A stretch of 32,000 nucleotides of DNA from an uncultured bacterium (GCA_963704705.1 OY969931.1:1110001-1142000), one strand, 5' to 3'; shown: positions 1-30,838, numbered from the stretch's first letter. A program made the numbers and translations. Notes: generated from the letters alone by a model not told the origin.

Positions 1-2072
1 CTAACGAACTTATTGATGAAAAAGCAGCTAAAGCAATTGAAAAACTTAAAATTGATGAAGTTCCGGTAATAGCATATGTTACGACCAATACAAAGTATAT
101 GGATGCTGATGAAGAAAAACCATTAACAATTTCTCAGGCAAATACACCAATCGATGATAAAACAGGAGAATTCCAGGAATTAAGAGTTGCTGCCCGTGAA
201 AATTCAGAACCTGTATTGGCTGATGCCGAAGACGTAACTCATATGGATGTATCTCCAAAACAGATCATCTCTGTTACTACTTCACTTATTCCATTCCTTG
301 AGCATGATGATAATACACGTGCTTCAATGGGTTCAAACATGCAACGTCAGGCTGTATCTCTTGTGTCACCTGAAGCTCCGATTGTCGGAACAGGTATGGA
401 AGAACTTGCAGCTAAATCTTCAGGTCAGGTATTGATTGCTGAAGATGACGGTACTGTTTCATATGTTGATGCTAATGAAATTACAGTTATTTATAAAAAC
501 GGTAAAAAAGTTACTTATACTCTTCATGTTTACAGCAGATCAAACCAGGCTACTTCTATTCATCAGAGAGCAGTTGTAGATCAAGGCGATAAAGTTAAAA
601 AAGGTGACGTACTTGCTGATGGTGCATCAACTGACGGCGGAGAACTTGCACTTGGAAGAAACCTTCTGGTGGCTTACATGGCTTGGCAGGGTTACAACTA
701 TGAAGATGCGGTAATTATTTCTGACAGACTTGTTAGAGATAGTGTTTATGATTCAGTTCATATCGAAACATTCACAATGGATGTTCGTGATACAAAACTA
801 GGACCTGAAATTGTAACAAGAGATATCCCTAACGTTGGAGAAAACAGATTAAAAGATCTGGATGAAGACGGTGTTGTGAGAATCGGTGCGCATGTAAAAG
901 AAGGAGATATCCTGGTTGGTAAAATCACACCAAAAGGTGAAACTGAATTAACCGCCGAAGAAAGATTATTACGTGCTATCTTCGGTGATAAAGCGCGTGA
1001 TGTAAAAGATACTTCATTAAGACTTCCCGGTGGTGAAGGCGGAAAAGTAGTTGGTGTTCAATTATTCACAAGACAAAATGGAGATGAACTTCCAACAGGA
1101 GTAAACAAACAAATCAGAGTAAGTGTTGCGCAGACTCGTAAAATCTCAGTTGGAGATAAAATAGCGGGACGCCATGGTAATAAAGGTGTAATTTCAATTA
1201 TTGTACCTCAGGAAGATATGCCGTTCTTACCGGATGGAACACCTGTTGATATTGTTTTGAATCCGCTTGGTGTATCAAGTCGTATGAATATCGGACAAAT
1301 TTTAGAAACGCATTTGGGATGGGCAGCAATAAAACTTGGCATGAAAGTTGCGAGTCCGGCGTTAAACGGAGCAAAACCTAAAGACATTACTGATCTTCTT
1401 AAAAAAGCGGGCTTACCTGAAGATGGAAAAATCCAGCTTTATGATGGAAAATCAGGTGAACCGTTTGATCACAAAACAACAGTAGGTATTGCTTACATAA
1501 TGAAATTGAGCCATTTGATTGAAGATAAAATCCATGCAAGATCTGTTGGACCATATTCACTTGTTACTCAGCAGCCTCTTGGAGGTAAAGCTCAGCATGG
1601 TGGACAGAGATTCGGAGAAATGGAGGTGTGGGCACTTGAAGCATATGGTGCATCTCATACTCTTCAGGAAATGCTCACAATCAAATCCGATGATGTATAC
1701 GGAAGAGCAAAGGCTTATGAATCAATCGTTAAAGGTGAAGCTATCAGAAAACCAAGAACACCTGAATCATTCAATGTACTTGTAAAAGAATTACAAAGTT
1801 TATGTTTGAGTGTTGATCTTGTTAATACTGATACATCTGACGATGACCTGGCCGAGGACGAATACTCAATCAAAGAAGTTGAAAAAGAAGAAGAAGAAAT
1901 TTTAAAAGAAGATATCGAAGACAGAGAAGAAGTTGATCCTGAAGTAGCAAAGAAAATGGCTGAACAAATTGTGACTCCTCATGAAGGTGGGAATCGCATT
2001 CAGCTAAGCGAAACAGAAGCTGCCGAACTGTCGGAATCTGAAACAGAAGCAGACATTGCTTCAAAAAAATAA
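1..2072 (+). CDS. rpoB: DNA-directed RNA polymerase subunit beta, 3' part (5' end upstream of window; codon phase begins at nt 3)
   Basis: Open to the window edge. Motifs [47 protein letters not shown] at 2070-2072 after a long acidic tail. Confidence 0.97.
2001..2050 (+). repeat. R1: degenerate GC-rich repeat copy inside the rpoB tail (hairpin CAGCT-12nt-AGCTG; GAAACAGAAGC occurs twice)
   Basis: cagct 2001-2005 pairs with agctg 2018-2022 around an aagcgaaacaga loop. Translated as [18 protein letters not shown]. Confidence 0.4.
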
Positions 2073-2143
2073 CAGAGCCGAGCAACGCGAGGGTCTGGCG
2101 AGCGAAAACTTATCGCGAGCCTAAGCGTGAGCAAAGCGAACAC
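2073..2143 (+). repeat. R2: GC-rich repeat copy starting at the first base after the rpoB stop
   Basis: cagagccgagcaacgcgagggtctggcgagcgaaaacttatcgcgagcctaagcgtgagcaaagcgaacac. Opens with CAGAGC, rich in GAGCGA/AGCGA units, contrasts with AT-rich flanks. Confidence 0.6.
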
Positions 2144-2174
2144 AATAGAACACACTTAATCTTTAACCAAACGA

Positions 2175-2705
2175 ATGATGAGAAGTGTAAATAAAGTCAT
2201 CTTGATAGGAAACCTGACAAGGGATCCGGAGATGCGACAAACAGCAAACGGGCAGATGGTTACTACATTCTGCATCGCGACAAACCGTGAATGGGTTACA
2301 AAAGACAGTGAAAAACACGGATTAGCAGAATATCACGATATCGTTGCTTGGGCGCGTCTTGCAGAAATCTGCAACAAATACCTTAAAAAAGGAAAACTTG
2401 TATACATCGAAGGTTACCTAAAAACACGAAGCTGGGATACTCCTGAAGGTGTAAAAAAATTCAGAACCGAAGTGGTTGCACAGGATATGATCATGCTTGA
2501 AAAAAGACCAAAAGGTGAAGAAGGCGAAGAATATATTCCGGAAAGTGACGAATATGTTCATGAAGAAGAACCAATGCAGAGCGAGCCAAAGGCGAGCTCT
2601 TCTGGAGCGAACGAAGTGAGCGAAGCGGAAAAAGAAAAAGAAGAGAAAAAAGAAGAGAAAAAAGAAGAATCTAAGGTCGATATATCAGCTGACCTTGGAC
2701 TTTAA
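2175..2705 (+). CDS. ssb: single-stranded DNA-binding protein
   Basis: OB-fold SSB pattern (VILIGNLTRDPEMR, YHDIVAWARLAE, LVYIEGYLKTRSW), then an acidic low-complexity linker. The tail ends DISADLGL rather than the classical DDDIPF-type tip. Start could be 2178. Confidence 0.9.
   Translation: MMRSVNKVILIGNLTRDPEMRQTANGQMVTTFCIATNREWVTKDSEKHGLAEYHDIVAWARLAEICNKYLKKGKLVYIEGYLKTRSWDTPEGVKKFRTEVVAQDMIMLEKRPKGEEGEEYIPESDEYVHEEEPMQSEPKASSSGANEVSEAEKEKEEKKEEKKEESKVDISADLGL
2577..2628 (+). repeat. R3: GC-rich repeat copy in frame within the ssb linker
   Basis: cagagcgagccaaaggcgagctcttctggagcgaacgaagtgagcgaagcgg. AGAGC...GCTCT stem. Read as QSEPKASSSGANEVSEAE. Confidence 0.65.
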
Positions 2706-2728
2706 CCCTTAATTAGCAATCAGCTATT

Positions 2729-3694
2729 ATGAGTGAACTCCTACAAACAATTTTACTATTCGCGGTAGCCCTATTCTTTCTGGTTAAATCAGCAGATTAT
2801 CTGGTGAAATATTCAGAAAAGTTAGGGTTATCGCTTGGAGTTCCTTCATTTATTGTCGGGATAACAATAATCAGTGCGGGTACTTCCCTGCCGGAACTTG
2901 CCACATCAATCTTCTCTATAGTTAAAGGAGAACCAGGTGTTGTTGCAGGTAACGTAATTGGTTCAAATATTGCCAATATTTTACTGGTTGTTGGTGTCGC
3001 TACAATAATTGCAAAAAAAATCGAAATCAAAAGAAGCCTAATCAGGCTTGATCTTCCGTTGCTGGTAGGGGCAAGCGCAATTTTGGTTTTGACTGTAATG
3101 GACGGCAAATTTACATTTATTGAAGGTGTAATTTCAATTTTAGGTTTCATAATCTACTTAATTTATAGTCTTACTGAACAGAAAAAACCTTTGGAGGAAA
3201 AAGAAAAAGGTTTAATAAAAACTTTGAAAGGTGAACAAAGGCCGCCCTTCAAATGGATTTATATTTTATGGATAGTAATTTCAGCTGCAGTACTTTATTT
3301 CTCTGCAAATTTCACTATTGATGCGGTTATAACAATGGGAGCAATTTTAAATTTAGATACATCTATCATCGCAATTACCGCTATAGCTATTGGTACTTCG
3401 CTTCCTGAACTTATTGTTTCTGTAACAGCAGCGAAAAAAGGTAAATTTGATATCGCTTTAGGTAATGTACTTGGTTCAAATATTTTTAACGGATTTATGA
3501 TAATGGGTGTTTCAGGTGTTATAACTGACCTGCCTGTTGAACCTGCGGTACTTAATATTGGTGTACCGTTTTTAATTGTTGCAACAATTTTTCTTGCTTT
3601 CTCAGGTATCGAACGAAAATTTTACAACTGGGAAGGCGCGCTTTACTTAATATTATATTTCCTATTTATAGGACAACTCTTTAACTTTATATAA
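2729..3694 (+). CDS. Ca2+/Na+ (CaCA family, YrbG-like) antiporter
   Basis: Polytopic membrane protein with duplicated alpha-repeat signatures [10 protein letters not shown] / [10 protein letters not shown] and GNVIGSNI / GNVLGSNI. Its stop lies 1 nt before the rpoC ATG. Confidence 0.88.
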
Positions 3695-3695
3695 A

Positions 3696-6600
3696 ATGGC
3701 AAATCAACAAGAACGGCCTCATGAAGGTCACCAAAGACAAAATCAAAACCCTCATACTTTAGATACATTTGATGCAATTTCAATTGCAGTTGCTTCTCCT
3801 GAGGAGATATTATCTTGGTCTCACGGCGAAGTTAAAAAGCCTGAAACAATTAATTACAGAACTCAAAAACCTGAACGTGAAGGTTTATTCTGTGAAAAGA
3901 TTTTCGGGCCAACCAAAAACTGGGAATGTTATTGCGGAAAATATAAAAGAATCCGATATAAAGGTGTAATTTGTGAAAAGTGTGGAGTTGAAGTTACTAG
4001 AAGCTCAGTTAGACGTGAAAGAATGGGTCATATTAAACTTGCGGTTCCTGTTACTCACATTTGGTTTTTAAGATCTACACCAAGCAGAATCGGTTTACTT
4101 TTGGATTTACCAATTAAAACTATTGAACAGGTAGTTTATTTTGCTGCATACGTAATTACTCAGGTTGATGAAGATGCAAAAACTGAAGCAAAAGAAACAC
4201 TTACAAATGAATATCAACAGCATAAGAAGAAAATTAAAGAAGAAGCAAAAAATGCTGTAGATAAAGCTAAATCAGATGAAAAGAAAAAGGGAGAACTTTC
4301 AATGATTGAAAGAGATTACGCTAAAAAAATTGAAGAATTGGATGAACAGCATGCAAGTGCAAAAGATGATTTAAACGGACTTGCAGTTGGCTCGGTATAT
4401 TCTGAGCTTGAATATAGAAATCTTTCAATGAAATTCGGACAAATCTTTAAAGCAAGTACAGGAGCTGAATCAATCCGGGATATCATTATGAGTCTTGATC
4501 TAAAATCATTGATTGATGAACTTGAAGTTGACCTTAAAAAAGCTTCAGGTCAAAAGCAAAAGAAAATTATTAAAAGAATTAAACTTTGCGGAAGTTTATT
4601 AAAAGCCGGAATCAAACCTGAATGGATGGTACTTACAGCATTGCCTGTAATTCCACCGGATTTAAGGCCAATGGTGCAACTTGACGGAGGAAGATTCGCT
4701 GCTTCTGATCTTAATGATTTATACAGACGTGTAATTAACAGAAATAACCGTTTAAAAAGACTTATTGCAATTGGAGCACCGGAAGTAATCTGCAGAAATG
4801 AAAAACGTATGCTTCAGGAAGCTGTTGATACTTTATTAAACAACAGCGCTCGTCAGGGTAAAACAGTATTTAACTCTGGAGATAAGAGAAAACTTCGATC
4901 TCTTTCTGACATGTTGAAAGGTAAACAGGGTCGTTTCAGACAAAACTTACTTGGTAAACGTGTGGATTATTCAGGACGTTCTGTAATTGTGGTTGGACCG
5001 CACCTTAAATTAAATCAATGTGGTTTACCAAAACTTATGGCAATGGAATTATTTAAGCCGTTTGTTATCGGACGTTTGATTAGAGACGGATATGCTCACA
5101 ACATTAAAAATGCAGAAAAATTAATTCAGGCTAATAAAAGAGAAGTTTGGGATATTCTTGAGGAAGTTACAATTGGTCACTATGTATTATTAAATCGTGC
5201 TCCAACGCTTCACAGATTGGGAATTCAGGCTTTCCAGCCTGTACTGGTAGAAGGTAAAGCGATTCAGATTCATCCATTGGTATGTACGGCGTTCAATGCG
5301 GACTTTGATGGAGATCAGATGGCGGTTCATGTGCCTTTATCAAAACAGGCTCAGGAAGAAGCTAAGAGACTTATTCAGTCAGCTAACAATTTACTTAAAC
5401 CATCTCATGGTGAACCTATCGTAACACCTACTCAGGATATGGTGCTTGGATGTTACTTCTTAACAAAAATGACACCTGGTAAAAAGGGAGAAGGTATGGT
5501 TTTCTCTGACTTGGACGAAGCAATTTTAGCTTATAGACTTGGATATGTTCATGTGCAGGCTGCAATCAAAGCAAGAGTTAATGATGAAATAATCGAAACA
5601 ACTGTTGGAAGAATGATCTTTAACAGCTTTGTACCTGAAGGACTTCCTTACGTTAACGAAACAATGAAAAAAGGAAGCTTAAGTTCACTTATCAGTGACT
5701 CTTACAATAAATACGGTAACGAAGTTACTGCAAAATTCGCTGATGAAATTAAAAGACTCGGATTTAAATTTGCTACAAAATCAGGGCTTTCAATCGGAGG
5801 TGCTGATATGCTTGTGCCTTCAGAAAAGACTAAAATCATTGAAGATTCTTCTGAAGTAATTAAACAGATTACAAATCAATTCAATGAAGGATTAATGACA
5901 GATGAAGAAAGATATAATCATTCGATTAAAGTATGGTCTCAGGCTAAATCTGACATTACAACAGCAATGATTAAAAACATTGATGATGAAAATCACATTT
6001 ATTACATGATTGATTCAGGAGCCAGAGGTAACTGGGGTCAGATCACACAGCTATGCGGAATTAAAGGTCTGGTTGCTAATCCTGCAGGTAAAACAATCGA
6101 ATTACCAATCAAATCAAACTTAAAAGAAGGATTCACCATCCTGGAATACTTCATTGCAACACATGGAGGCCGTAAAGGTAAATCTGATACAGCGCTTAAA
6201 ACAGCTGAAGCAGGTTACTTAACACGTCGTCTTGTTGATGCGGTTCAGGATATCATTGTTAAAGAATATGACTGCGGAACTGAACACGCTCATAGAATCA
6301 CACGTAATGAAAGTGAACAGATCGGTGAAGATTTTGAAAAGAGAATTTACGGACGTGTTGTTACAAAGAATGTTATAGATTCAAAAACAGGTGAAGTACT
6401 TGTTAAAAAAGATACTGAACTTGGCAAAGCGGAAATCAAGAAAATCACCGAAGGAACAGTTGATGAAGTATATGCAAGATCAGTAATGACGTGCCAGACT
6501 CCAAATGGAATCTGCGTAAAATGTTATGGTAAAGATCTCGGAACAAATGACACTGTTGATATTGGTACTGCTGTTGGAATTATCGCAGCACAAAGTATCG

Positions 6601-7628
6601 GTGAACCTGGAACACAGCTTACCATGCGTACATTCCACATGGGTGGTGTTGCGGAAGGAAAAGATATTACTCAGGGTCTTACACGTGTTGAAGAACTATT
6701 CGAAGCAAGAACTCCTAAATCTCCTGCTGTACTGGCTGAAATCGATGGCAAAGTTAAAATCAGTCAAAAAGGTAAAACAGCTGCAATCACTGTTATTTCA
6801 GAAGAACCGATAATTACTCAATATCCGCTTGGCGCTTTCATGAAAGCCGAAGTGAAAAAAGGAGATAAGATTAAAGAAAAACAGGTTATTGCAAAATCTA
6901 CAAAGCAAAAAAATCTTATAAAAGCTGAAAATGACGGCAAAGTTCTTAGCGTTAGTGATGAAATGATTGAACTAATTTCAGATGACGTTGTTGAAAGAGT
7001 TTATACAATTCCTCAAGGTAAAACTATCCTTGTTAAAAACGGCGATAAAGTTACCAAAGGACAGGCGCTTACATCAGGTCACTTGAATTTGAGACAATTG
7101 ATGCAGTTAACCGACATATACAATCTGCAAAAATATATTATGCAGGAAGTACAAAGTATATATGCTTCACAGGGTCAGACAATCAATGATAAACACATTG
7201 AGATTATTGCGAGACAAATGCTTTCTAAATCAAGGATTCTTGATTCCGGTGACACAAACATGTTACCAGGTGAACTTGTTGATACCATTGAACTTGAAAA
7301 GCTTAACGCTGACTTGATTAAGAAGAAAAAACACCCTGCTGATGCTGAAAGATTACTTCTTGGACTTACAAGGATTTCACTTTATACAGATAGCTGGCTT
7401 TCTGCTGCTTCATTCCAGGAAACAATCCGTGTGCTTGTTGAAGCATCAACAACTAAACGTATTGATAACCTTGAAGGTCTTAAAGAAAACGTTATCATCG
7501 GTAAACTTATTCCTGCAGGAGATACTTATAAGAACAGAAACCCTGAATTGGTTAAAGAAATGGAGAAATACTATACGAAAAAAGAAAAAGAGGAAACAGT
7601 GCAGGAAGAATCACTTGGAGAAATGTAG
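3696..7628 (+). CDS. rpoC: DNA-directed RNA polymerase subunit beta'
   Basis: 1310 aa. N-terminal Zn motif [23 protein letters not shown], catalytic [12 protein letters not shown], conserved [17 protein letters not shown]. Confidence 0.98.
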
Positions 7629-7630
7629 TC

Positions 7631-7677
7631 GGATTGGGGCGATGTGCAAGTTGTTCACTCGCACATCGCCCCAATCC
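7631..7677 (+). other. perfect 17-bp stem hairpin 3 nt after the rpoC stop, no U-tract
   Basis: ggattggggcgatgtgc (7631-7647) is the exact reverse complement of gcacatcgccccaatcc (7661-7677), with a 13-nt loop. Followed by tctgctcat, not a T run. Confidence 0.6.
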
Positions 7678-7704
7678 TCTGCTCATAAAAAGTTTAAAAA
7701 ACTC

Positions 7705-7733
7705 TTGCAATCCGCTCTTAAATCCTTTACATT
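7705..7733 (+). promoter_or_regulatory. candidate sigma70-type promoter for rpsL-rpsG
   Basis: TTGCAA (7705-7710), 17 nt, TACATT (7728-7733), about 28 nt upstream of the rpsL ATG. Confidence 0.4.
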
Positions 7734-7761
7734 AACCGTCGCCACTTAAATTTAAAAAGAT

Positions 7762-11335: not shown

Positions 11336-11354
11336 GCGAAGTTCGATGAGGCGA

Positions 11355-11498
11355 TTAGGTGCCGAGTCGTCCTGTCCACGCGAGTACGTGGAAGACGACA
11401 AAAGGCGGGCAGAGCACAGTGAAGATGGCGGTAACCACGATCATGGTGTTGAAGTGACGCTTTGCGCTTCTCTTCAGCTCTTTGTTCTCGTTCATCAT
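11355..11498 (-). CDS. small hydrophobic peptide A (47 aa): MMNENKELKRSAKRHFNTMIVVTAIFTVLCPPFVVFHVLAWTGRLGT
   Basis: Absent from the ORF track, which lists nothing shorter than 60 aa. AAGGAGA Shine-Dalgarno 5 nt upstream of the first ATG (plus-strand tctcctt 11504-11510). Basic N-terminus plus one ~24-aa TM segment. About half G+C by hand count. Terminator follows directly. Confidence 0.55.
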   Translation of the reverse strand: MMNENKELKRSAKRHFNTMIVVTAIFTVLCPPFVVFHVLAWTGRLGT

Positions 11499-16749: not shown

Positions 16750-16805
16750 AGAGCGACCAAAGGGAGCTCTTTGGAGCGAGCCGCGTTAAGGCGGCGAGCG
16801 AAGCT
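16750..16805 (+). repeat. R4: GC-rich repeat copy starting right after the tuf stop
   Basis: agagcgaccaaagggagctctttggagcgagccgcgttaaggcggcgagcgaagc. AGAGC (16750-16754) pairs with GCTCT (16766-16770). Second small stem gccgc/gcggc. Confidence 0.65.
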
Positions 16806-16825: not shown

Positions 16826-16853
16826 GCCCCTGCCGAAAGGTGGGGGCTTTTTT
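16826..16853 (+). terminator. intrinsic terminator after tuf
   Basis: gcccctgcc-gaaa-ggtgggggc, then tttttt. GAAA tetraloop, two G-U pairs. Confidence 0.7.
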
Positions 16854-16901
16854 AGACCAGGTCTGGCGGGTAGACCAGGTCTGGCCGCCAGACCTGGTCT
16901 A
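16853..16901. promoter_or_regulatory. array of three 15-bp TAGACCAGGTCTGGC units (two direct, one inverted), each holding the palindrome AGACC-W-GGTCT
   Basis: Units at 16853-16867, 16871-16885 and inverted at 16887-16901. Units 2 and 3 form a perfect 31-bp palindrome. Core centres are 18 bp apart. The array ends 5 bp before the -35 of the next promoter. Confidence 0.6.
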
Positions 16902-16906
16902 AATCA

Positions 16907-16935
16907 TTTACAACCTAAGTGAATTCTGGTATAAT
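16907..16935 (+). promoter_or_regulatory. candidate promoter (extended -10) for the 16972-18297 gene pair
   Basis: TTTACA (16907-16912), 17 nt ending in TGG, TATAAT (16930-16935). Confidence 0.55.
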
Positions 16936-20205: not shown

Positions 20206-20859
20206 CTAGTCAAAAATGTACATCTTTTCGCCCAAAATAGGCTCAGGTTTAATTATATGAACATCAAGAAATGCCAGCAAAATTGCTGGTATTTCTCTTA
20301 GATTATAATAAGCCTGGTCCTTGTACTCCTGGCGGCTCGCAGAAACGCCAATAACGTCTATTCCCAGAGCGCGACAAGTATATAGAGCTCTGTATAAATG
20401 GTATTCCTGAGTAACAAGAATTGCTTTATCTATGCCGAATATTTCTTTTGCACGATAACAAGTGTCGTATGTGCGGCGTCCTGCAAAATCCATAATCAAA
20501 TCATCTTCATCAACAGATAAAATTTTGCCAAATCTCTTCATTACAATAGGCTCATTGTAGTTTTCAACGCGATTATCACCGGACATTATAATTTTTTCCA
20601 CTTTGCCCTTATTGTAAAGGTCTACAGCCGTAATAATACGGTCCTGCAAAATATCACTAGGCAACAAAGTTGCAGGATTAACAGCTGCACCAAATACAAT
20701 GGCTGCAGGTCGCTCATCAAGTTGCTCTATATCTTTATATGAGTAAATAAGCTCTTCTGTACTCGATTTCACGTACCAAAGTATTGAAGTAAGCATTATT
20801 AATACAAATAAAATTGCAAGCAGACCGATTGTTACGATTTTTTTCACAGGAATTGACAT
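20206..20859 (-). CDS. SanA/YdcF-like (DUF218) membrane-anchored protein
   Basis: N-terminal TM helix, then MSGDNRVENYNEP..M, DFAGRRTYDTCYRA, LVTQEYHLYRALYTCRALGID, as in SanA. ATG at 20859 preferred over the TTG at 20880 used by the track. Confidence 0.8.
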   Translation of the reverse strand: MSIPVKKIVTIGLLAILFVLIMLTSILWYVKSSTEELIYSYKDIEQLDERPAAIVFGAAVNPATLLPSDILQDRIITAVDLYNKGKVEKIIMSGDNRVENYNEPIVMKRFGKILSVDEDDLIMDFAGRRTYDTCYRAKEIFGIDKAILVTQEYHLYRALYTCRALGIDVIGVSASRQEYKDQAYYNLREIPAILLAFLDVHIIKPEPILGEKMYIFD

Positions 20860-22884: not shown

Positions 22885-23556
22885 ATGAAAGCAGACTTAT
22901 ACACACAAACAGGAGAGAAAAAAGGACAAGTTGAATTAAAAAAAGAATTTTTTGAAGTTCCTTATAATAGAGATTTGATTCACCAGGCGCTTGTGCGTCA
23001 GCAGGCTAATGCAAGAGCTCCGTTTGCTCACACTCTTCAAAGAGGTGAAGTTAACGCGACTAACAAAAAGCCGCACAGACAAAAAGGAACTGGTTATGCA
23101 AGACAGGGTTCAAGAGTTGGCCCTCATATGAGAGGCGGAGGAATAGTGTTTGGTCCTAGAAAAGAAAGAAACTACACTGTGGCAATGCCAAAGAAACAAA
23201 GAAGAAAAGCTTTGTTCTCAGCATTATCAGTAAAAGCGAGAGATAATCAGATTATGGCTTTGGAAGGATATGAAGGAGAAGTTAAGACAAAATCATTTGC
23301 AGAAATGATCGCAAAATTACCAATTGAAAGAAATGTATTAGTTGTTATACCAGAGAAAAACGTAGTGATCCAAAGATCATCAAATAATCTACCTAATGTT
23401 AAAACTATTTTAGTTGGATATCTAAATATAGCTGATCTGCAGAAATACAGAAATGTTCTGTTCCTGAAAGATGCCCTTACTAAAATGGAAGAAGTTTTCC
23501 AGAGTGAGAAGGGCGCAGCGAAAGCGACCTCTAAATCTACTAAAACTAAAGAATAA
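22885..23556 (+). CDS. rplD: 50S ribosomal protein L4
   Basis: L4 pattern (KKPHRQKGTGYARQGS, GGGIVFGP) and synteny. The C-terminal tail contains repeat R5. Confidence 0.96.
   Translation: MKADLYTQTGEKKGQVELKKEFFEVPYNRDLIHQALVRQQANARAPFAHTLQRGEVNATNKKPHRQKGTGYARQGSRVGPHMRGGGIVFGPRKERNYTVAMPKKQRRKALFSALSVKARDNQIMALEGYEGEVKTKSFAEMIAKLPIERNVLVVIPEKNVVIQRSSNNLPNVKTILVGYLNIADLQKYRNVLFLKDALTKMEEVFQSEKGAAKATSKSTKTKE
23500..23537 (+). repeat. R5: diverged repeat copy in frame in the rplD tail
   Basis: cagagtgagaagggcgcagcgaaagcgacctctaaatc. AGAG...CTCT stem. Shares the TCTAAATC end with R9. Read as QSEKGAAKATSKS. Confidence 0.45.
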
Positions 23557-23558
23557 TT

Positions 23559-23885: not shown

Positions 23886-23887
23886 CA

Positions 23888-24733
23888 ATGGCTGTAAAAA
23901 CAGTTAAACCAACAACACCGGGACGAAGAAATATGAGCGCTTACACCTTTGAAGAGCTTACTAAGAGCAAACCTGAAAAAAGACTGATTAAAAGACTAAA
24001 CAAGAGATCAGGAAGAAATAATCAGGGTAAACTTACAATAAGACACAGAGGCGGAGGGCACAAAAGAATGTATAGAATTCTTGATTTCAAAAGAACTGAC
24101 AAGCACAACATTGAAGGAAGAGTTGTTGCGGTTGAATACGATCCATACAGAACAGCATATATTGCTTTAGTTCAATATACTGACGGAGAAAGAAGATATC
24201 ATCTTGCTCCGCAGGGACTAAAAATAGACGACAAATTACTTTGCGCAGAAAAAACTAAATTAAAACCAGGCAACAGAATGCTGATTAAAAATTTCCCTGT
24301 TGGATTCATGGTTTACAACATTGAATTAAGTACAGGAAAAGGCGGACAGATTGTAAGATCTGCAGGATCAGCAGCAAAAGTTGTTTCGCAGGAAGATGAA
24401 AGACACACACAGATTCAATTGCCATCAGGCGAAGTAAGGCTTGTAAACAAAGCTTGTTACGCAACCTATGGAACAGTAGGAAATATAGAACATTCAAATA
24501 TTAAAATAGGTAAAGCAGGAAGAATGAGAAATATGGGAAGAAGACCACAAGTAAGAGGTAAGGTAATGAATCCGTGCGATCATCCACATGGTGGTGGTGA
24601 AGGAAATCAGCCAATTGGTTTGAAACATCCTAAAACACCTTGGGGAATGCCAGCACTTGGATTCAAGACAAGAAGACGTAAATATTCAGATAAACATATT
24701 CTTAAATCACGTAAATATGGCAAGAAGCAGTAA
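23888..24733 (+). CDS. rplB: 50S ribosomal protein L2
   Basis: [22 protein letters not shown]. Confidence 0.98.
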
Positions 24734-24986
24734 AAAAGGGCCATTCGTTGATCCTCGATTACTCAAAAAAATAGATAAGATGAATGATAGCGGCAAGAAC
24801 AATGTTATTAAAACATGGTCTCGAAGCTGTGACATCGCGCCTGAATTCGTTGGTCACACATTCGGAGTCCACAATGGCAAACAACATATTCCTGTATTCG
24901 TTACAGAAAATATGGTTGGCCACAAACTGGGAGAATTCGCTCCTACTCGTAAATTTAAAGCCCACGGAGGTAAACTAGCTAAATAA
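24717..24986 (+). CDS. rpsS: 30S ribosomal protein S19
   Basis: [12 protein letters not shown]..., [10 protein letters not shown]. Trimmed from the track start 24657; overlaps rplB by 17 nt. Confidence 0.96.
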
Positions 24987-25018
24987 CAGTCATGAGCCGC
25001 GAGGCGAATGACCAATCC
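24987..25018 (+). repeat. R6: diverged repeat copy starting at the first base after the rpsS stop
   Basis: cagtcatgagccgcgaggcgaatgaccaatcc. Stem GTCAT/ATGAC around a gagccgcgaggcga loop. Confidence 0.45.
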
Positions 25019-25030
25019 TAATATTAAAAA

Positions 25031-25477
25031 ATGAAAGCAATCGCAAAACATGTAAGGATATCACCAAAAAAAGCAAATTTAGTTGCCGGATTGGTTAGAA
25101 GTAAAAATGCAGTGGAAGCACTTGATATCTTGAAATTCACACCTAAAAAAGCAGCAAAAATTCTTTATAAGGTTCTGCACAGCGCAGTTGCAAACGCTGA
25201 AAACAACTTTAAACAGAATAAAGACGCATTAATAGTAAAAGAAATTGTAGTAACTGAAGGACGCACATTAAAAAGAAGTGTTCCAATCTCAAGAGGAAGA
25301 GTTCATCCGATTCTAAAAAGGTCATCTCACATAACTATTACAGTAGGATTACCAGAAGGCGTAGCGACTGAAAATAAGGAAAAAGAAGAACCTAAAAAAG
25401 AAAAGGCTGAAAAAAAACCTGAAGTTAAAAAAGAAGTTAAACCTAAAAAAGCTACTAAAACAACTAAATCTAAATAA
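25031..25477 (+). CDS. rplV: 50S ribosomal protein L22 with K/E-rich C-terminal extension
   Basis: L22 core (ISPKKANLVAGLVRSK, AENNF) and synteny. Confidence 0.96.
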   Translation: MKAIAKHVRISPKKANLVAGLVRSKNAVEALDILKFTPKKAAKILYKVLHSAVANAENNFKQNKDALIVKEIVVTEGRTLKRSVPISRGRVHPILKRSSHITITVGLPEGVATENKEKEEPKKEKAEKKPEVKKEVKPKKATKTTKSK

Positions 25478-25480
25478 TCT

Positions 25481-26284
25481 ATGGGACAAAAAGTCAATCC
25501 AGTTAGCATGCGTATGAAAGTGAATCGATTATGGGATTCAAAATGGTATGCAAACAAGAAAAAATATCATAAAACATTACACGAAGACTTTGCTATCGAA
25601 GATATGATACGCGGAAAATTGGTTGATTCAGGTGTTTCACAGGTTGAAATTTTAAGAACAGCAAACGCTGTTGTAATAAATGTTCACACTGCAAAACCAG
25701 GTTTAATTATCGGTCGCGGTGGTGAAACAATCGAAGCATTAAGAGAAAAATTAGAGAAAAAATTCGGAAGCCAATTCAATGTTAATATCCTTGAAATTAA
25801 AAATCCGGCAATTGATGCGCTTTTAGTAGCAGAATCAATTGCAAAGCAGATCGAAAGAAGAATCTCTTATAGAAGAGCTGCAAAAATGGCTATCGATAAA
25901 GCAATGGAAGGCGGAGCTCAGGGAGCAAAAGTAAGAGTTGGAGGAAGACTTAACGGAGTGGAAATCGCAAGAAATGAATTCTTCTCAAAAGGAAAAATTC
26001 CTCTACACACATTCAGGGCAAATATCGATTACGCTTATACCCCTGCAAATACAACTTATGGAGCAATCGGAGTTAAAGTATGGATTTACAAAGGTGATGT
26101 ATTCAAACACGACAGAGCGAGCGAAGCGAGCTCTATGGAAGGAGCGTCAGCGACTGAAGCGGGGAAAAAAGATGAACAAAGGAAAGAAACTAAATCAGAA
26201 AAACCCGCACCAAAAAAAGCTCCGGCAAAAAAACCGATAGCAAAGAAAAAAACTACTACAAGCAAAAGTAACTCTAAAAAATAA
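25481..26284 (+). CDS. rpsC: 30S ribosomal protein S3 with long C-terminal extension
   Basis: MGQKVNP, KH domain [12 protein letters not shown]. The tail contains repeat R7. Confidence 0.97.
26113..26164 (+). repeat. R7: near-consensus repeat copy in frame in the rpsC tail
   Basis: cagagcgagcgaagcgagctctatggaaggagcgtcagcgactgaagcgggg. Read as [17 protein letters not shown], in a different phase from R3 and R5. Confidence 0.7.
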
Positions 26285-26286
26285 TT

Positions 26287-26709
26287 ATGCTCGCACCAAA
26301 AAGATTAAAATTCAGAAAATTGCATAGAGGCAGAAGCCAGCTTAAAGGAAAATCTATGCGCGGAAATATGATTAGTTTCGGTGATTACGCATTGAAATCA
26401 ATTACTGCGGGTGAAGTTAATTCAAGGCAAATAGAAGCTGCCAGAAGAGCAATCACACACTATTGTAAAAGAGGCGGGAAAATATGGATTAGAGTATTCC
26501 CAATGAAACCTATAACTATAAAAGGTGCGGAAACTCCAATGGGTAGCGGTAAAGGTGCTGTGGACAGATACGTAGATGTAGTAAAACCAGGAAAAATTAT
26601 ATTTGAAATGAACGGTGTTACAGAAGAAATAGCAAAAGAAGCTTTAAAAAGAGCTGCACACAAATTACCTGTTCAATGCAAAATTATATCAGCACATAAA
26701 CATCAATAA
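26287..26709 (+). CDS. rplP: 50S ribosomal protein L16
   Basis: [18 protein letters not shown]. Confidence 0.97.
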
Positions 26710-26711
26710 AC

Positions 26712-26936
26712 ATGTTAACTCTACAGGAACTTAAAAAATTATCAGTAAAAGAATTAAATGAAGAATTTGCGCAGGCTTCAAAAGATCTGTTTAAAACTAA
26801 ATTCGAAGTAAGCACAGGAGTATCAAAAGCAAATCATGAAATCGGGAAATTAAGAAGATACAGAGCACAAATAAAAACAACCAAGAAAAGCATGGAAATC
26901 AAAGAAAAAAGTGATTTCCAATCTCAAAAGAATTAA
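26712..26936 (+). CDS. rpmC: 50S ribosomal protein L29
   Basis: Size, ELKKLSVKELNEE..LF pattern, synteny. Confidence 0.9.
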   Translation: MLTLQELKKLSVKELNEEFAQASKDLFKTKFEVSTGVSKANHEIGKLRRYRAQIKTTKKSMEIKEKSDFQSQKN

Positions 26937-26951
26937 TAACTATCTAAAACT

Positions 26952-27188
26952 ATGAGAACAATAACAGGCATAGTGACAAGCAAAAAAATGGATAAGACCC
27001 TTGTACTTACAGTTGATTCTTACAAAAATCATCCTAAATACAAGAAAAGATACAGAGTTTCAAAAAAATTCTATGTAGATAATCCTGAAAATAAATTCGA
27101 AGTTGGAGAAAAAATCACAGTATACGAAAGCAAACCTTTGAGTAAATTGAAAAGATGGACCACCAGAGCGACTGAAGCAAAATCATAA
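26952..27188 (+). CDS. rpsQ: 30S ribosomal protein S17
   Basis: GIVTSKKMDKT, HPKYKKR, synteny. Confidence 0.94.
   Translation: MRTITGIVTSKKMDKTLVLTVDSYKNHPKYKKRYRVSKKFYVDNPENKFEVGEKITVYESKPLSKLKRWTTRATEAKS
27164..27179 (+). repeat. R8: short fragment of the repeat in the rpsQ tail
   Basis: cagagcgactgaagca matches both ends of R7 (CAGAGCGA... and ...GCGACTGAAGC). Read as RATEA. Confidence 0.3.
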
Positions 27189-27212
27189 AAAATTAACTAT
27201 TAATTAAAAGCA

Positions 27213-27581
27213 ATGATTCAACCGGAAACTAAATTACAGGTAGCAGACAATACAGGCGCTAAAATGGTGAAATGTATTAAAGTGCTTGGAGGATCAAAAA
27301 GAAGATATGCATCAATTGGAGATATCATAGTTGTATCTGTAAAAGAAGCTGCGCCAAAGGGAATTGTTAAGAAAAAATCTGTTGAAAAGGCAGTGATAGT
27401 AAGATGTCAAAACGCAGTAGGAAGAAAAGATGGTTCATATATTAGATTCGATGAAAATGCAGTTGTAATTGTAAATAAAGATATGCAGCCGAAAGGAACC
27501 CGTGTATTTGGACCGGTTGCAAGAGAGTTAAGAGAAAAAGGGTTCCAAAAAATTATATCATTAGCACCAGAAGTAATTTAA
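27213..27581 (+). CDS. rplN: 50S ribosomal protein L14
   Basis: [17 protein letters not shown], highly conserved. Confidence 0.98.
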
Positions 27582-27587
27582 ATAACT

Positions 27588-27914
27588 ATGAAAATTAAAG
27601 TAAATGACAATGTATTGGTAATTACAGGTAAAGATCGCGGTAAAAGCGGTAAAGTATTAAGAACATTGGCAAAAGATGAAAGAGTTGTAGTGGAAAAAGT
27701 TAATATGAGAACTAAACACATTAAAAAATCTCAAACAAGACCGGGCAGCAAAATTACTTTTGAAGCTCCAATGAATGTAAGCAATGTTATGGCTGTATGC
27801 CCTAGCTGCAAAAAAACAACAAGAGTAGGTTACAAGAAATTAGAAAGCGGAAGAAAACAAAGAGTATGTAAAAAATGTAATGAATCACTTGATAAAATTG
27901 AATCTAAAAAATAA
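27588..27914 (+). CDS. rplX: 50S ribosomal protein L24 (Cys4-containing form)
   Basis: KOW motif VITGKDRGKSGKV. CPSC (27798-) and CKKC (-27878) pairs in the C-terminal hairpin region. Confidence 0.95.
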   Translation: MKIKVNDNVLVITGKDRGKSGKVLRTLAKDERVVVEKVNMRTKHIKKSQTRPGSKITFEAPMNVSNVMAVCPSCKKTTRVGYKKLESGRKQRVCKKCNESLDKIESKK

Positions 27915-27947
27915 CGGACGCGAGCGACAGCGAAGCGTCTAAATCCC
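27915..27947 (+). repeat. R9: repeat copy starting at the first base after the rplX stop
   Basis: cggacgcgagcgacagcgaagcgtctaaatccc. Stem GGACGC/GCGTCT around a gagcgacagcgaa loop. Confidence 0.55.
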
Positions 27948-27959
27948 TAACTGAAAAAA

Positions 27960-28514
27960 ATGGCTAAAGAAAAATCAGGACTAAAAGAACGGTTTTATAA
28001 AGAAATAGCTCCCAAGTTAATGGCTGATTTAGGGATAACTAACCTGAACGCTGTACCAAGACTTGATAAAGTCGTTATAAATGCCGGTCTTGGAAGTCAT
28101 TACACTTCAGGAAGCAAAGACTTTTCAGTATTTGAAGATAACTTTAGCGCAATATCAGGTCAAAAACCGGTTGTAAGAAAATCTAAAAAAGCAATTTCGA
28201 ACTTCAAGATAAGACAGGGTATGCCTAACGGTGTAATGGTAACACTCAGAGGAGATAGAATGTATGACTTTATTGATAAACTGGTTAATATTGTATTCCC
28301 TCGAGTAAGAGACTTCAGAGGAATATCAAAAAAAGCATTTGATGGAAGAGGAAATTATTCAGTTGGACTAAAAGAACACATTGTATTCCCTGAAATTAAT
28401 CCTGATGATATTGCTAAAATCCATGGTTTACAAATATGCGTAAATACAACTGCTGGAAATGATGAACATGGAAAAGCATTATTAGTCGCATTGGGATTCC
28501 CGTTTAAAAAATAA
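27960..28514 (+). CDS. rplE: 50S ribosomal protein L5
   Basis: L5 pattern (NLNAVPRLDKVVINAG, FPRVRDFRG) and synteny. Confidence 0.97.
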   Translation: MAKEKSGLKERFYKEIAPKLMADLGITNLNAVPRLDKVVINAGLGSHYTSGSKDFSVFEDNFSAISGQKPVVRKSKKAISNFKIRQGMPNGVMVTLRGDRMYDFIDKLVNIVFPRVRDFRGISKKAFDGRGNYSVGLKEHIVFPEINPDDIAKIHGLQICVNTTAGNDEHGKALLVALGFPFKK

Positions 28515-28526
28515 CTTTAATTAAAT

Positions 28527-28751
28527 ATGGCTCGTACAGCACTAATCGTAAAAACTAAGAAAAAGCAGAAAGAATACCTTAATGCATTGCAGCAAGGTAA
28601 AAAGCCTAAATTCCCAACAAGAGTTTATAACAGATGCGAAAGATGCGGCAGAAACAGAGGATATTTGAGAAAGTTCAATATGTGCAGAATATGCGTAAGA
28701 GAACTTGCTCAAAAAGGAAAGATTGCAGGGCTTACAAAGTCTTCTTGGTAG
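28527..28751 (+). CDS. rpsN: 30S ribosomal protein S14, zinc-binding (type Z-like)
   Basis: CERCGR...CRIC motif, ends GLTKSSW. Confidence 0.95.
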
Positions 28752-28770
28752 AGCGTAGCGGATCGAAAAT
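28751..28770 (+). repeat. R10: 3'-half copy of the repeat, overlapping the rpsN stop codon
   Basis: gagcgtagcggatcgaaaat resembles the GGAGCGAAGCGAAGCGAAAAAT half of R11. Confidence 0.35.
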
Positions 28771-28807
28771 AACTATAACTACTACATACTAATTATAAAT
28801 TTATAAC

Positions 28808-29194
28808 ATGAATACAGACCCAATCTCAGATTATTTAACTAGAATCAGGAATGCGTCGAGAGCGAAACATTCGAAAGTTGTAATACCATATTCAAAACTT
28901 AAGGAAGAGATTACAAAAGTATTACAAAAAAGAAAATTCTTAGGTGCATATGAAGTAAAAGAAAACGGTAAATTCAAAGAATTAGTTGTTGAAATAAAAC
29001 CTTGGAGTATGGAGCCGTTAACATTAACAAGAGTAAGCAGACCCGGTCAAAGAATCTATATGAACCATAAAGATATTAGAGCCGTAAAAAACGGTCTTGG
29101 AGTATTGATACTATCAACATCTAAAGGAATTATGCCCGGAGAAGAAGCGCGAGATAAAAAAATGGGTGGTGAAGCAATCTGTAAAGTTTATTAA
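28808..29194 (+). CDS. rpsH: 30S ribosomal protein S8
   Basis: DPISDYLTRIRNA, LSTSKGIM. Confidence 0.97.
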   Translation: MNTDPISDYLTRIRNASRAKHSKVVIPYSKLKEEITKVLQKRKFLGAYEVKENGKFKELVVEIKPWSMEPLTLTRVSRPGQRIYMNHKDIRAVKNGLGVLILSTSKGIMPGEEARDKKMGGEAICKVY

Positions 29195-29237
29195 CAGAGC
29201 GCAGCATAAGCGGAGCTCTATGGAGCGAAGCGAAGCG
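29195..29237 (+). repeat. R11: near-consensus repeat copy starting at the first base after the rpsH stop
   Basis: cagagcgcagcataagcggagctctatggagcgaagcgaagcg. AGAGC/GCTCT stem, followed by a pure A/T spacer. Confidence 0.7.
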
Positions 29238-29272
29238 AAAAATAATAATTATAATAATAAAATTAAATCACA

Positions 29273-29824
29273 ATGTCACGAATAGGAAAATTACCAATTG
29301 AAATACCAGCAGGAGTTACCGTTGATATAAAAAACGGGTTAGTAACTGTGAAAGGACCTAATGGCGAATTATCTGAAGCAATTCATCCTAATATTAAAAT
29401 AGAGGTAAAAGATAATGAAATTCTTTGTTTAAGAGAAGGTGAAGATAATTTATCAAGAAGTCTGCATGGATTATCTCGAAATCTTATTAACAACATGGTT
29501 ATAGGGGTTACAAAAGGTTTTGAAAGACGACTAGAAATAATCGGTGTTGGATATAAAGCTCAGCCATCGGGAAATAAAGTTACACTTAATCTAGGTTATT
29601 CTCACCCGATTGAATATAAAGCTCCTGAAGGGATTAAATTCGAACTTGATCCTGATAAAAAGAACTTATTAATTATTACAGGAAACAGTAAACAAGTAGT
29701 TGGTGAAGTAGCGGCAAAAGTAAGAAGCTACAGAAAACCAGAACCATATAAAGGAAAAGGTATTAGATACTCTGATGAATATGTTGCACGTAAAGTTGGT
29801 AAAGCAGTAGCGAAAGGCGAATAA
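29273..29824 (+). CDS. rplF: 50S ribosomal protein L6
   Basis: MSRIGKLPIEIP, GVGYKA, KGIRY. Confidence 0.97.
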   Translation: MSRIGKLPIEIPAGVTVDIKNGLVTVKGPNGELSEAIHPNIKIEVKDNEILCLREGEDNLSRSLHGLSRNLINNMVIGVTKGFERRLEIIGVGYKAQPSGNKVTLNLGYSHPIEYKAPEGIKFELDPDKKNLLIITGNSKQVVGEVAAKVRSYRKPEPYKGKGIRYSDEYVARKVGKAVAKGE

Positions 29825-29866
29825 CAGAGCGAGCGATAGCGAGCTCTATGGAACGAAGTGGAGCGG
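29825..29866 (+). repeat. R12: near-consensus repeat copy starting at the first base after the rplF stop
   Basis: cagagcgagcgatagcgagctctatggaacgaagtggagcgg. AGAGC/GCTCT stem. Confidence 0.7.
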
Positions 29867-29905
29867 AATAAAATAATTACTAAATAATAAATTAATTATC
29901 ATAAA

Positions 29906-30250
29906 ATGCCATCAGTAAAAGAAATCACAAGAAAAAGACGACATCAAAAAATCTCTAAGAAAGTTAGAGGAACTGCAGCAAGACCAAGATTAGTTATATT
30001 TAAGAGTAATATGAGTACTTATGTTCAGTTAATTGATGACGACGCAAATAAGACATTAACTTGCATATCAGACGTAAAAGATAAAAAGCCAACTAATGTT
30101 GAAAGCGCAAAGAAAATCGGTTTGGAAGTTGCAAAGAAAGCAAAAGAATTAAAAGTTGATACCTGCGTATTTGATCGCAATGGATATAAATATCACGGCT
30201 TAGTTAAAGCATTAGCTGATGCTGCTCGTGAAGGAGGACTAAACTTTTAA
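29906..30250 (+). CDS. rplR: 50S ribosomal protein L18
   Basis: RPRLVIFKSN, FDRNGYKYHG, REGGLNF end. Confidence 0.96.
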   Translation: MPSVKEITRKRRHQKISKKVRGTAARPRLVIFKSNMSTYVQLIDDDANKTLTCISDVKDKKPTNVESAKKIGLEVAKKAKELKVDTCVFDRNGYKYHGLVKALADAAREGGLNF

Positions 30251-30282
30251 TTACTAATTACTAATTTCTAATAACTAATTAT
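30248..30282 (+). repeat. five tandem heptamers (TAATTAC TAATTAC TAATTTC TAATAAC TAATTAT) filling the rplR-rpsE spacer
   Basis: Read directly. Starts on the rplR TAA and ends 4 nt before the rpsE ATG. Confidence 0.8.
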
Positions 30283-30286
30283 AGAT

Positions 30287-30838
30287 ATGGGAAAACCAGC
30301 ACATAAAAAAGGTAGATCACCAATGAAAGAAGTTAAGGAATACGAAGAAGAAGTAATTCAGATTGATCGTGTTACCAGAGTAGTAAAAGGTGGACGAAGA
30401 CTTAGATTCAGAGCAACTGTTGTTATTGGCAACAGAAAAGGTAAAGTCGGAATCGGTATCGGAAAATCTACCGAGGTTGCTGCTGCAATTCAAAAAGCAA
30501 TCCAAAAAGCTAAACGTTCACTAATTATTGTTCCTATTTTCAGAGATACAATCCCGCACGATATTAAACATAAATTTAAGAGTTCAAGAATTATGATGAT
30601 GCCTGCTGGAGAAGGTACCGGTATTATTGCAGGAGGTGCAGTTCGTAAAGTTGTGGAATTGGCTGGAATTAAAAATATTTTAAGTAAATCGTTTGGAACA
30701 AATAATAAAGTGAGTAATACTCAATGTGCTTATGAAACTTTAAAACTATTAAGAAAAAGAACAGAAAGACCAAAAGCAGGAGCGACCAAAGCGGAGCTTC
30801 TTAAGGAGCAAAGCGAAGCGAAACCATCAAAAGAATAA
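30287..30838 (+). CDS. rpsE: 30S ribosomal protein S5
   Basis: VTRVVKGGRRLRFRA, GTGIIAGG. The C-terminal tail contains repeat R13. Confidence 0.97.
   Translation: MGKPAHKKGRSPMKEVKEYEEEVIQIDRVTRVVKGGRRLRFRATVVIGNRKGKVGIGIGKSTEVAAAIQKAIQKAKRSLIIVPIFRDTIPHDIKHKFKSSRIMMMPAGEGTGIIAGGAVRKVVELAGIKNILSKSFGTNNKVSNTQCAYETLKLLRKRTERPKAGATKAELLKEQSEAKPSKE
30777..30820 (+). repeat. R13: diverged repeat copy in frame in the rpsE tail
   Basis: caggagcgaccaaagcggagcttcttaaggagcaaagcgaagcg. Closest to R4. Read as GATKAELLKEQSEA. Confidence 0.55.

Follow-up and report, generated by a model that had tools for sequence, protein, structure and literature searches.

Are short hairpins that recur at the ends of a bacterium's most conserved genes kept there as working RNA, or are they DNA passengers filtered by selection? 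The question is raised by a 32,000-nucleotide (nt) stretch of DNA from an uncultured bacterium (GCA_963704705.1 OY969931.1:1110001-1142000), hereafter called the window, whose RNA polymerase and ribosomal-protein genes carry, within them or immediately behind their stop codons, GC-rich hairpin repeats of one recurrent make-up. The original prediction had set a selfish element resembling repetitive extragenic palindromic (REP) sequences or Rickettsia palindromic elements (RPEs) beside a functional RNA module, and preferred neither. Comparison with syntenic DNA from six related genomes now favors the former. We judge the family to consist of mobile or selfish repeats that are lineage-specific and non-autonomous and have been filtered by selection, with a probability of roughly 0.55, because its copies are polymorphic in presence and absence, decay, insert in frame into coding sequences, have expanded in a lineage-specific manner, and are nearly absent from relatives that possess the same operons.

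The material compared comprises the Logan contig L001, which is identical to the window and runs 7.3 kb beyond its end, and the loci of the relatives. L136 is the closest of these (88-91% DNA identity to the window). L125, L131 and L135 are parts of one Joint Genome Institute (JGI) contig, of which 55 kb was covered; L128 and L133 are relative loci taken to derive from the same genome; L134 and L130 were also compared; and L021 and L012 together represent one Peregrinibacteria metagenome-assembled genome. The window itself is AT-rich (~36% GC), and its closest relatives in the databases carry the labels Patescibacteria, Candidatus Peregrinibacteria or Gracilibacteria, pointing to an AT-rich, Peregrinibacteria-like host of the candidate phyla radiation (CPR).

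A family of structured repeats

The repeats form a real family. A strict pattern (AGAGCG N7-12 GAGCTCT N1-2 TGGARSG) matches the window five times, always on the plus strand, and none of 100 shuffled versions. A covariance model built from ten copies assigns 36-51 bits to the six strong window copies, R3, R4, R7, R11, R12 and R13, all six of which were training sequences, and 20-45 bits to untrained copies in other genomes. R2, R6 and R9 are structural variants of the family, R2 being marginal by the model (12 bits, E 0.04-0.15) and of the same architecture. R5, R8 and R10 are too short to score, and are counted as decayed relics because each lies at the exact place of a full copy in a relative: the L4 tail of L128, the S17 tail of L125, and the rpsN-rpsH junction of both L125 and L021. 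The thirteen copies originally listed thus resolve into six strong members, three variants and three relics, with the loss of R1 at 2001, which is conserved rpoB coding sequence, a 13-residue RpoB segment common to relatives. Absent from that list were a relic in the rplV tail near 25359-25375 and three copies beyond the window, after secY, rpoA and rplQ, the first of them decayed. A look-alike at 20365-20392, on the plus strand inside a minus-strand SanA-like gene, is a chance hairpin (6 bits).

That all this amounts to a chance, low-complexity likeness among GC-rich patches, with no family behind it, is effectively refuted. A strict scan for GA-flanked hairpins does rise only modestly above shuffles of local composition (6 found; shuffles averaged 2.0 and reached 8 at most), which is why the GA/GA internal loop is used here as a descriptive feature rather than a proven motif, and R1, R5, R8 and R10 do not score on their own. 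However, the strict pattern yields 5 matches where 0 are expected, independent copies in other genomes reach 20-53 bits, and a long form of ~125 nt is common to two genomes.

Each unit is built from an outer stem of 5-6 bp, a GA step, an inner stem of 2-3 bp, a loop of 3-5 nt, a second GA and the returning strand of the outer stem. In most cases a tail rich in purines (UGGAGCGAAGCGAAGCG) and an A run come next. Short forms are 26-70 nt long, window copies including relics 15-69 nt, with 57-69% GC and 62-69% purine. The original prediction that pairing is retained while sequence varies is borne out at two levels. Within the main type the outer stem is invariant (AGAGC/GCUCU, or GGAGC/GCUCU in L125), and the inner stem alternates from G-C to C-G; in 14 cells both partners differ, and the covariation score was reached by 0 of 500 shuffles, in an alignment fitted to the model. 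Between subtypes, outer stems are exchanged wholesale and still pair: GUCAU/AUGAC in R6, GGACGC/GCGUCU in the R9 type, and AGAGCC/GGGUCU in R2. The CGGACGC subtype, found at five sites and always directly after TAA, carries the family tail twice (AUGAAGCGAAGCGAAG or AUGGAGUGAAC...), so that the outer-stem variants can be assigned to one family. Its member R9 was also considered as an S8 operator at the start of rplE, an idea set aside given that hairpins of this subtype follow rplQ, rpsH and secY too, in different genomes.

The tail folds into a second GA-flanked hairpin in R2, R4 and their relatives, the tandem hairpins being direct rather than inverted repeats. In L125 the ~125-nt long form follows rpoA, and in L021 it is lodged in the S5 tail; the several short tails look as if each had come from it by its own internal deletion. 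Between L125 19229-19290 and L021 3370-3440, three coordinated substitutions (CUAGA/UCUAG/GUAGAG versus CGAGA/UCUCG/GGAGAG) leave a local palindrome intact and a long-range pairing as well, so that the long form may have alternative folds, as judged from two sequences.

The family is narrow and specific to a small clade of AT-rich, Peregrinibacteria-like CPR bacteria. Across representative genomes of 185,579 species the strict pattern gave 43 matches, of which 3 are true, in two Patescibacteria/Peregrinibacteria genomes; the remainder are chance matches in GC-rich genomes. No motif was found in 27 AT-rich spc loci of other lineages, drawn as a negative control from a metagenome scan with the L6 protein (relatives at ≤59% identity). 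A phage or plasmid origin was rejected, as the strict pattern matched no viral contig and blastn of the long form found no match among phages and plasmids. A scan of the window against Rfam at E≤1 returned four sub-threshold chance matches, none at a copy, and the window holds no tRNA or transfer-messenger RNA genes. In full-text literature searches no account of repeats like these turned up for CPR or Peregrinibacteria, and the family is apparently undescribed so far.

Table 1. Repeat copies and relics in the window, two sites filled only in a relative, and the state of each corresponding site in related genomes (bits, covariance-model score)
Feature	Position	Strand	Location and form	Bits	Relatives
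R2	2073-2141	+	Double hairpin from first base past rpoB TAA: CAGAGCC-GA-GC-aac-GC-GA-GGGTCTG, then GGC-GA-GC-loop-GC-GA-GCC, then GAGCAAAGCGAAC tail		Double hairpin kept in L131, L134; tail-only fragment carrying the stop codon in L136; empty in L133
R3	2577-2628	+	Full copy in ssb coding sequence, disordered linker; translation QSEPKASSSGANEVSEAE	46	Filled in L136 (44.6 bits); SSB linkers of L131, L134 empty
R4	16750-16804	+	Full copy plus second GA-flanked hairpin, first base past tuf TAG, in the 3′ untranslated region; tuf terminator (16826-16847) 22 nt downstream	50.7	Filled in L131, diverged in both hairpins yet paired, same 3′ junction; empty in L133
R5	23500-23532	+	Degenerate relic, rplD (L4) C-terminal tail	no match	Clear copy in L128 L4 tail (CAGAGCCGAGCGCCTAAGGCGCCAAGCTCTAAAGCGAGC...); L125 L4 without tail
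R6	24987-25012	+	Hairpin only, GTCAT-GA-GCC-gcga-GGC-GA-ATGAC, first base past rpsS TAA; z -3.45		Same hairpin in L125; empty 2-nt spacer in L128
rplV relic	25359-25375	+	rplV (L22) tail, GGCGTAGCGACTGAAAA; weak evidence		Full copy plus partial copy in L125 L22 tail
R7	26113-26164	+	Full copy in rpsC (S3) C-terminal tail, 17-residue translation; tail sub-variant ATGGAAGGAGCGTCAGCGACTGAAGCG	45.7	Same sub-variant in L125 infA and rpsE tails (non-orthologous)
R8	27164-27178	+	Deletion relic, end of rpsQ (S17)		Full copy in L125 (39.6 bits), same ending GAAGCAAAATC(C/A)TAA
R9	27915-27940	+	Hairpin only, CGGACGC subtype, GGACGC-GA-GC-gaca-GC-GAA-GCGTCT, first base past rplX TAA		Kept in L125, L128 with different loop; absent from L130, L021
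R10	28750-28765	+	Relic overlapping rpsN TAG		Full copies in L125 (31.8 bits), L021 (49.4 bits); another relic in L128
R11	29195-29237	+	Full copy (AGAGC type), first base past rpsH TAA (rpsH-rplF), then A run	47.5	Filled in L021 (CGGACGC type); empty in L125, L128, L130
R12	29825-29866	+	Full copy, first base past rplF TAA (rplF-rplR)	48.2	Relic in L021; empty in L125, L128, L130
R13	30777-30820	+	Copy in rpsE (S5) tail	36.6	Copies in L125 S5 tail; long form in L021
rpsE-rplO site			Empty in window		Filled in L125; empty in L128, L021
SLH gene 3′ end			Empty in window (minus-strand gene)		Filled in L131

Turnover and placement of the copies

Presence/absence polymorphism at orthologous junctions, which had been put forward as a check on the original prediction, is found in the relatives, with clean boundaries and no consistent target-site duplication: a TAA...TAA duplication would be compatible with the rpsE-rplO and rplX-rplE sites and is not compatible with rpoB or the SLH gene, and TAA is in any case very common in these spacers. 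The 3′ end of rpoB exists in four states in four genomes, L136 among them. Copy load varies steeply, from ~16 in 39 kb of the window plus its extension and ~19 in 55 kb of the JGI contig to ~3 in 43 kb of L128/L133 and ~0 in 20 kb of L130, despite a SecY identity of 91-93% among the window, L125 and L128 (~83% to L130 and L021). Copies at non-orthologous sites also share the signature of their genome, CGGAGC...TCTAAGG in L125/L131 as opposed to CAGAGC...TCTATGG in the window. On these sequence comparisons, the family shows gain, loss, homogenization and decay rather than site-by-site conservation.

Placement is as constrained as presence is fluid. Intergenic copies start 0-1 nt past a stop codon, or share the AG of a TAG, at 13 independent sites, a coincidence rarely expected from random placement because empty spacers measure only 20-30 nt. 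The exact junctions given in the original prediction hold: TAA is followed directly by the C of a copy at 2073, 24987, 27915, 29195 and 29825, TAG by A at 16750, and the rpsN TAG is overlapped at 28750/1. A single copy and an A/T run make up each long spacer of the spc region, as the original prediction also stated. Where a transcription unit ends (tuf, and the SLH gene in L131), the copy lies between the stop codon and the true terminator.

Intergenic copies are sense to the upstream gene at 13 of 13 sites; the model matches below E 0.01 all run in the sense of the local gene, and none of the model matches form an inverted pair. The earlier statement that minus-strand and accessory genes lack copies is correct within the window and does not extend to the relatives, where copies follow a minus-strand SLH/beta-propeller gene (L131 15051-15093) and a minus-strand hypothetical open reading frame (ORF; L135 11975-12028). 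Since these two lie on the opposite strand, behind minus-strand genes, orientation tracks the gene and not the DNA strand; should the 124-residue ORF overlapped by the L135 copy not be a real gene, that copy would lie antisense to trmD.

Within coding sequences there are 14 copies at 11 gene positions, all in disordered tails or linkers rich in Lys, Glu and Ala. Their hosts are S3, S5, S17, L4, L22, L5, IF1, SSB, the N-terminal extension of RpoB, an RNR-like enzyme and a surface protein. The idea that these insertions use all three reading frames was discarded, as 13 of the 14 share one, in which AGC UCU encodes Ser-Ser within ..SS(M/K)E(R/G)..; the exception is R13, whose frame is shifted by an extra T (GAGCTTCTT).

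Selfish DNA, selected RNA or recombination

How might such a distribution come about? If the repeats are selfish, they would be short GC- and purine-rich palindromic insertion modules, non-autonomous, that are added, homogenized, deleted and left to decay while the flanking DNA is still ~90% identical. Survival would be confined to places where a copy costs little: at the first nucleotide past a stop codon, with the A/U-rich leader of the next gene left intact, or in one reading frame within the disordered Lys/Glu/Ala-rich tails and linkers of abundant proteins. The copies would be co-transcribed with their host genes, and those in coding sequences translated. Spread would proceed by transposition or copy-and-paste through a trans-acting activity that recognizes the sense-strand hairpin, as single-stranded DNA or as RNA, and the orientation, frame and stop abutment may reflect selection, a transcription-linked insertion step, or both. 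An effect at the RNA level, such as a barrier to 3′ exonucleases, would then be secondary.

Several observations weigh against this reading. No transposase, reverse transcriptase or HUH enzyme was seen in the window or the annotated loci (~230 kb in total), and no member of the Y1_Tnp family occurs in the annotations of ~200 kb of loci; the window ORFs of unknown function were also considered as transposase candidates, and none is one. The tail-bearing form has no terminal inverted repeats, and target-site duplications are, as noted, inconsistent. Uniform sense orientation, which follows the gene even onto the opposite strand, and exact abutment to stop codons are not predicted for passive selfish DNA, and both could mean a selected RNA function. 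The orthologous tuf copies have kept their pairing through a large sequence change. Stems hold 8 G.U pairs against 2 A.C mismatches, an asymmetry that gives a weak hint that the sense strand is the folding strand and that its fold is under selection. Density is also 4-5 times higher in translation and transcription gene clusters than in one unbiased 10-kb sample. The sense-only, stop-abutting pattern is not explained by a naive selfish-DNA model, which needs an addition: either an RNA-level benefit that is selected, or insertion linked to transcription or translation. More specific versions of these additions are conceivable, and we think them unlikely. Spread could be coupled to expression, through the displaced sense strand of heavily transcribed genes or through RNA-mediated, reverse-transcribed copy-and-paste; or the hairpin could be a domesticated "stop-codon guard" that replaces conventional 3′-end signals in CPR. 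Expression-coupled insertion, if true, would mean a bacterial mini-element of a hitherto undescribed kind, placed at codon boundaries beside stops and always sense.

The strongest competitor sees in the post-stop hairpin a cis-acting mRNA element selected in highly expressed operons, either as a 3′-exonuclease barrier or processing boundary that keeps the upstream cistron and its stop complete, or as a modulator of termination and re-initiation where Shine-Dalgarno sequences are lacking. The family would have spread by duplication or gene conversion, with the copies in coding sequences as by-products. Sense orientation at all 13 intergenic sites, two of them after minus-strand genes, the position of every intergenic copy 0-1 nt past or overlapping a stop, the placement ahead of the true terminator at tuf and at the L131 SLH gene, the compensatory stem differences with their excess of G.U over A.C, and the enrichment in ribosomal-protein, RNA-polymerase, elongation-factor and secY genes all fit such a role, as does retention of the rplX-rplE hairpin even in copy-poor L128. 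E. coli REP hairpins within ~15 nt of a stop codon reportedly affect translation of the upstream gene. Yet the same operons have empty sites in close relatives, L128/L133 and L130 being almost copy-free; relics persist at several sites without purifying selection; 11 sites within coding sequences, including an N-terminal tail, cannot be 3′-end signals; and copies are homogenized within genomes rather than conserved by site. Because close relatives do without copies, and because several copies are visibly decaying, a purely functional module seems to us doubtful. Intrinsic (Rho-independent) termination in particular can be dismissed: no U tract follows any copy, purines or A runs stand in its place, and a terminator scan called none of them. 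The related idea that antisense insertions would create terminators was ruled out on inspection, the flanks being A-rich on the sense strand.

Dedicated mobility could be dispensed with if the module arose from the purine-rich Lys/Glu/Ala coding tails themselves and was shuffled by homologous or microhomology-mediated recombination, gene conversion and hairpin-driven template switching, leaving post-stop copies as by-products of tail turnover. The repeat tail GAA GCG AAG CGA AGC GAA AAA does resemble the local tail code, although the module codons GCG, AGC and CGA are unlike those of the AT-rich tails. In-register recombination between codon-periodic flanks would place copies in one frame, as 13 of 14 are, and the sense-only orientation fits the strong purine loading of sense strands in the window, where GC and AT skews are positive over plus-strand genes and reversed over minus-strand ones. 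The nested, fast-changing palindromes at the 3′ ends of rpoB and rpoC, and the lack of any transposase seen, likewise agree with it. What tail truncation does not predict is that post-stop copies stand in varying frames and begin exactly at the stop at 13 sites, nor that S8, L6 and L24, constant in length and without tails, are nevertheless followed by copies. Stop-codon loss or tail truncation as the source of the post-stop copies was rejected on these grounds, and we hold the recombination account as a whole to be quite unlikely. Two other causes of orientation fare no better: a replication-strand bias, as for a single-stranded DNA transposon, is weakened as sole cause by the two opposite-strand copies that follow their genes, and oriented oligomers such as uptake signals, FtsK-orienting polar sequences (KOPS) or Chi were set aside, the conserved unit being at least 40 nt, structured, and aligned with gene direction.

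Surroundings, significance and known repeat systems

Gene order in the window runs from the 3′ part of rpoB through ssb, a Ca/Na antiporter gene, rpoC, rpsL, rpsG and the minus-strand SLH/beta-propeller gene to fusA, tuf, rpsJ and the S10/spc operon up to rplO. The insertion of ssb and the antiporter gene between rpoB and rpoC (2175-3694) recurs in L131, L134 and L136. The 36 main window genes end in TAA (30) or TAG (6) and never in TGA, and the long ORFs called with translation table 11 have no in-frame TGA. Gracilibacteria and Absconditabacteria, to which the lineage is close, reassign UGA. A relative ORF (L135 12013-12387) ends at a TGA that lies within a repeat copy.

Other palindromes share these gene ends. 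A perfect long hairpin (TCGGATTGGGGCGATGTGC...GCACATCGCCCCAATCC) without a U tract occupies 7629-7677, from the first base past the rpoC TAG; L131 has the same outer arms around another interior, L136 has another version, and L133 and L134 have none. In L131 and L136, the loop of this different hairpin holds an antisense 13-nt piece of the repeat tail (AGCGAAGCGGAGT), which has to be set against the uniform sense orientation of the copies. Just past the tuf terminator, a second palindromic repeat (TAGACCAGGTCTGGCGGGTAGACCAGGTCTGGCCGCCAGACCTGGTCTA) spans 16851-16905, and L131 has a unit resembling it (TTAGACTGAGTCTACCCGGCAGACTCGGTCTAA) in the interval from rpsG to the SLH gene. In the window, a short way downstream of the tuf terminator, at 16907-16935 and ahead of a 136-residue ORF, is the region's strongest sigma-70-like promoter match (TTTACA-17-TATAAT plus TG). 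Between the SLH gene and fusA, where the sequence is comparatively GC-rich and its annotation poor, an isolated GA-flanked hairpin at 11344-11369 (CGAT-GA-GGC-gattaggt-GCC-GA-GTCG) falls outside the family under the covariance model. Another GC-rich hairpin (GAGTGAGCCGGCCTTGAGGCGGCTCAC) lies beyond the window after adk (L001 7930-8037, ~33463-33570 in window coordinates), in a spacer of 108 nt that measures 0-10 nt in relatives.

The spacers 5′ of rpsE, rpsM and rpsD are filled by tandem TTACTAA/ATTACTAA heptamers (window 30251-30286; L001 10308-10471 and 11267-11302) and contain no Shine-Dalgarno sequences. Many ribosomal proteins (for example 25031-25477, 25481-26284 and 30859-31410) and the RpoB N-terminus of L131 and L136 bear low-complexity extensions rich in Lys, Glu, Ala and Pro, which vary by tens of residues between close relatives.

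CPR repeat families are almost undescribed, and the present one, apparently a further form of the familiar RPE/REP-like type with an unusual placement rule, indicates that streamlined genomes of 1-1.4 Mb tolerate selfish-looking insertions in their most conserved operons and within ribosomal proteins, RNA polymerase, SSB and IF1 themselves. Such insertions affect gene calling, protein-length comparison and the alignment of phylogenomic markers, and filled and empty sites could serve as markers for tracking strains in metagenomes. Sense orientation, a single frame and base-exact stop abutment together make a clean, testable pattern, which could reveal a transcription- or translation-linked insertion, or else a simple RNA 3′-end device in a system without Shine-Dalgarno sequences.

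[quoted passage not shown] MITEs, however, are marked by inverted repeats at both termini, duplication of the target site and a parent insertion sequence. No such inverted repeats, no parent element and no consistent duplication were found here: the hairpin occupies the 5′ end only, the 3′ end being a purine tail and A run, and the hairpin-only variants are 26-nt palindromes. Elements derived from IS200/IS605 insert 3′ of a fixed 4-5-nt target without duplication, their orientation tied to the replication strand. The intergenic copies do lie 3′ of TAA or TAG without clear duplication; the copies in coding sequences share no common 5′ flank, and the two on the opposite strand follow their genes.

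REP sequences, with their composite and mobile forms, bacterial interspersed mosaic elements (BIMEs) and REP doublets forming hairpins (REPINs), come closer in form, being short imperfect palindromes of high copy number that are transcribed along with their neighbors at the 3′ ends of genes and between cistrons, many of them near stops. REPs can stabilize upstream mRNA or affect translation. They are extragenic by definition, whereas the present repeats are translated inside coding sequences at 11 sites; they occur in both orientations, typically as inverted doublets, whereas the present copies are single and all sense; and they are linked to genes for REP-associated tyrosine transposases (RAYTs), of which none was seen here in ~230 kb. 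The palindromic GC clusters of yeast mitochondrial DNA are mobile, invade an AT-rich genome and have expanded its spacers in particular lineages (PMC5558958). That lineage-wise expansion of spacers in an AT-rich genome by GC-rich palindromes is shared, although these clusters belong to the genetic system of an organelle and have unrelated sequences. Optional GC clusters also lie in frame in a ribosomal-protein gene, VAR1. We know of no rule of stop-codon abutment or sense-only orientation for them.

RPEs are interspersed palindromes that reside both between genes and, in frame, in unrelated protein genes, where they encode a conserved peptide, and that have proliferated in a lineage-specific manner in a small, reduced genome (PMC1779305; PMC10969869). 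The same combination is present here, with 13 intergenic sites, 14 copies at 11 positions in coding sequences that encode a conserved peptide, lineage-specific proliferation, and, in both families, no linked transposase. The differences are that RPEs measure 100-150 bp and reside in Rickettsia, while the present repeats are mostly 26-70 nt (long form ~125 nt) in a Patescibacteria/Peregrinibacteria host; set apart on the described features of RPEs, they are apparently unrelated to them in sequence. To our knowledge, GC-rich copies in an AT-rich genome, stop abutment, sense-only orientation and concentration in ribosomal-protein and RNA-polymerase genes have not been described for RPEs. Judged by its sequences, then, the family appears to belong to no REP, MITE, RPE, terminator or Rfam class, and it is the RPEs that it resembles most.

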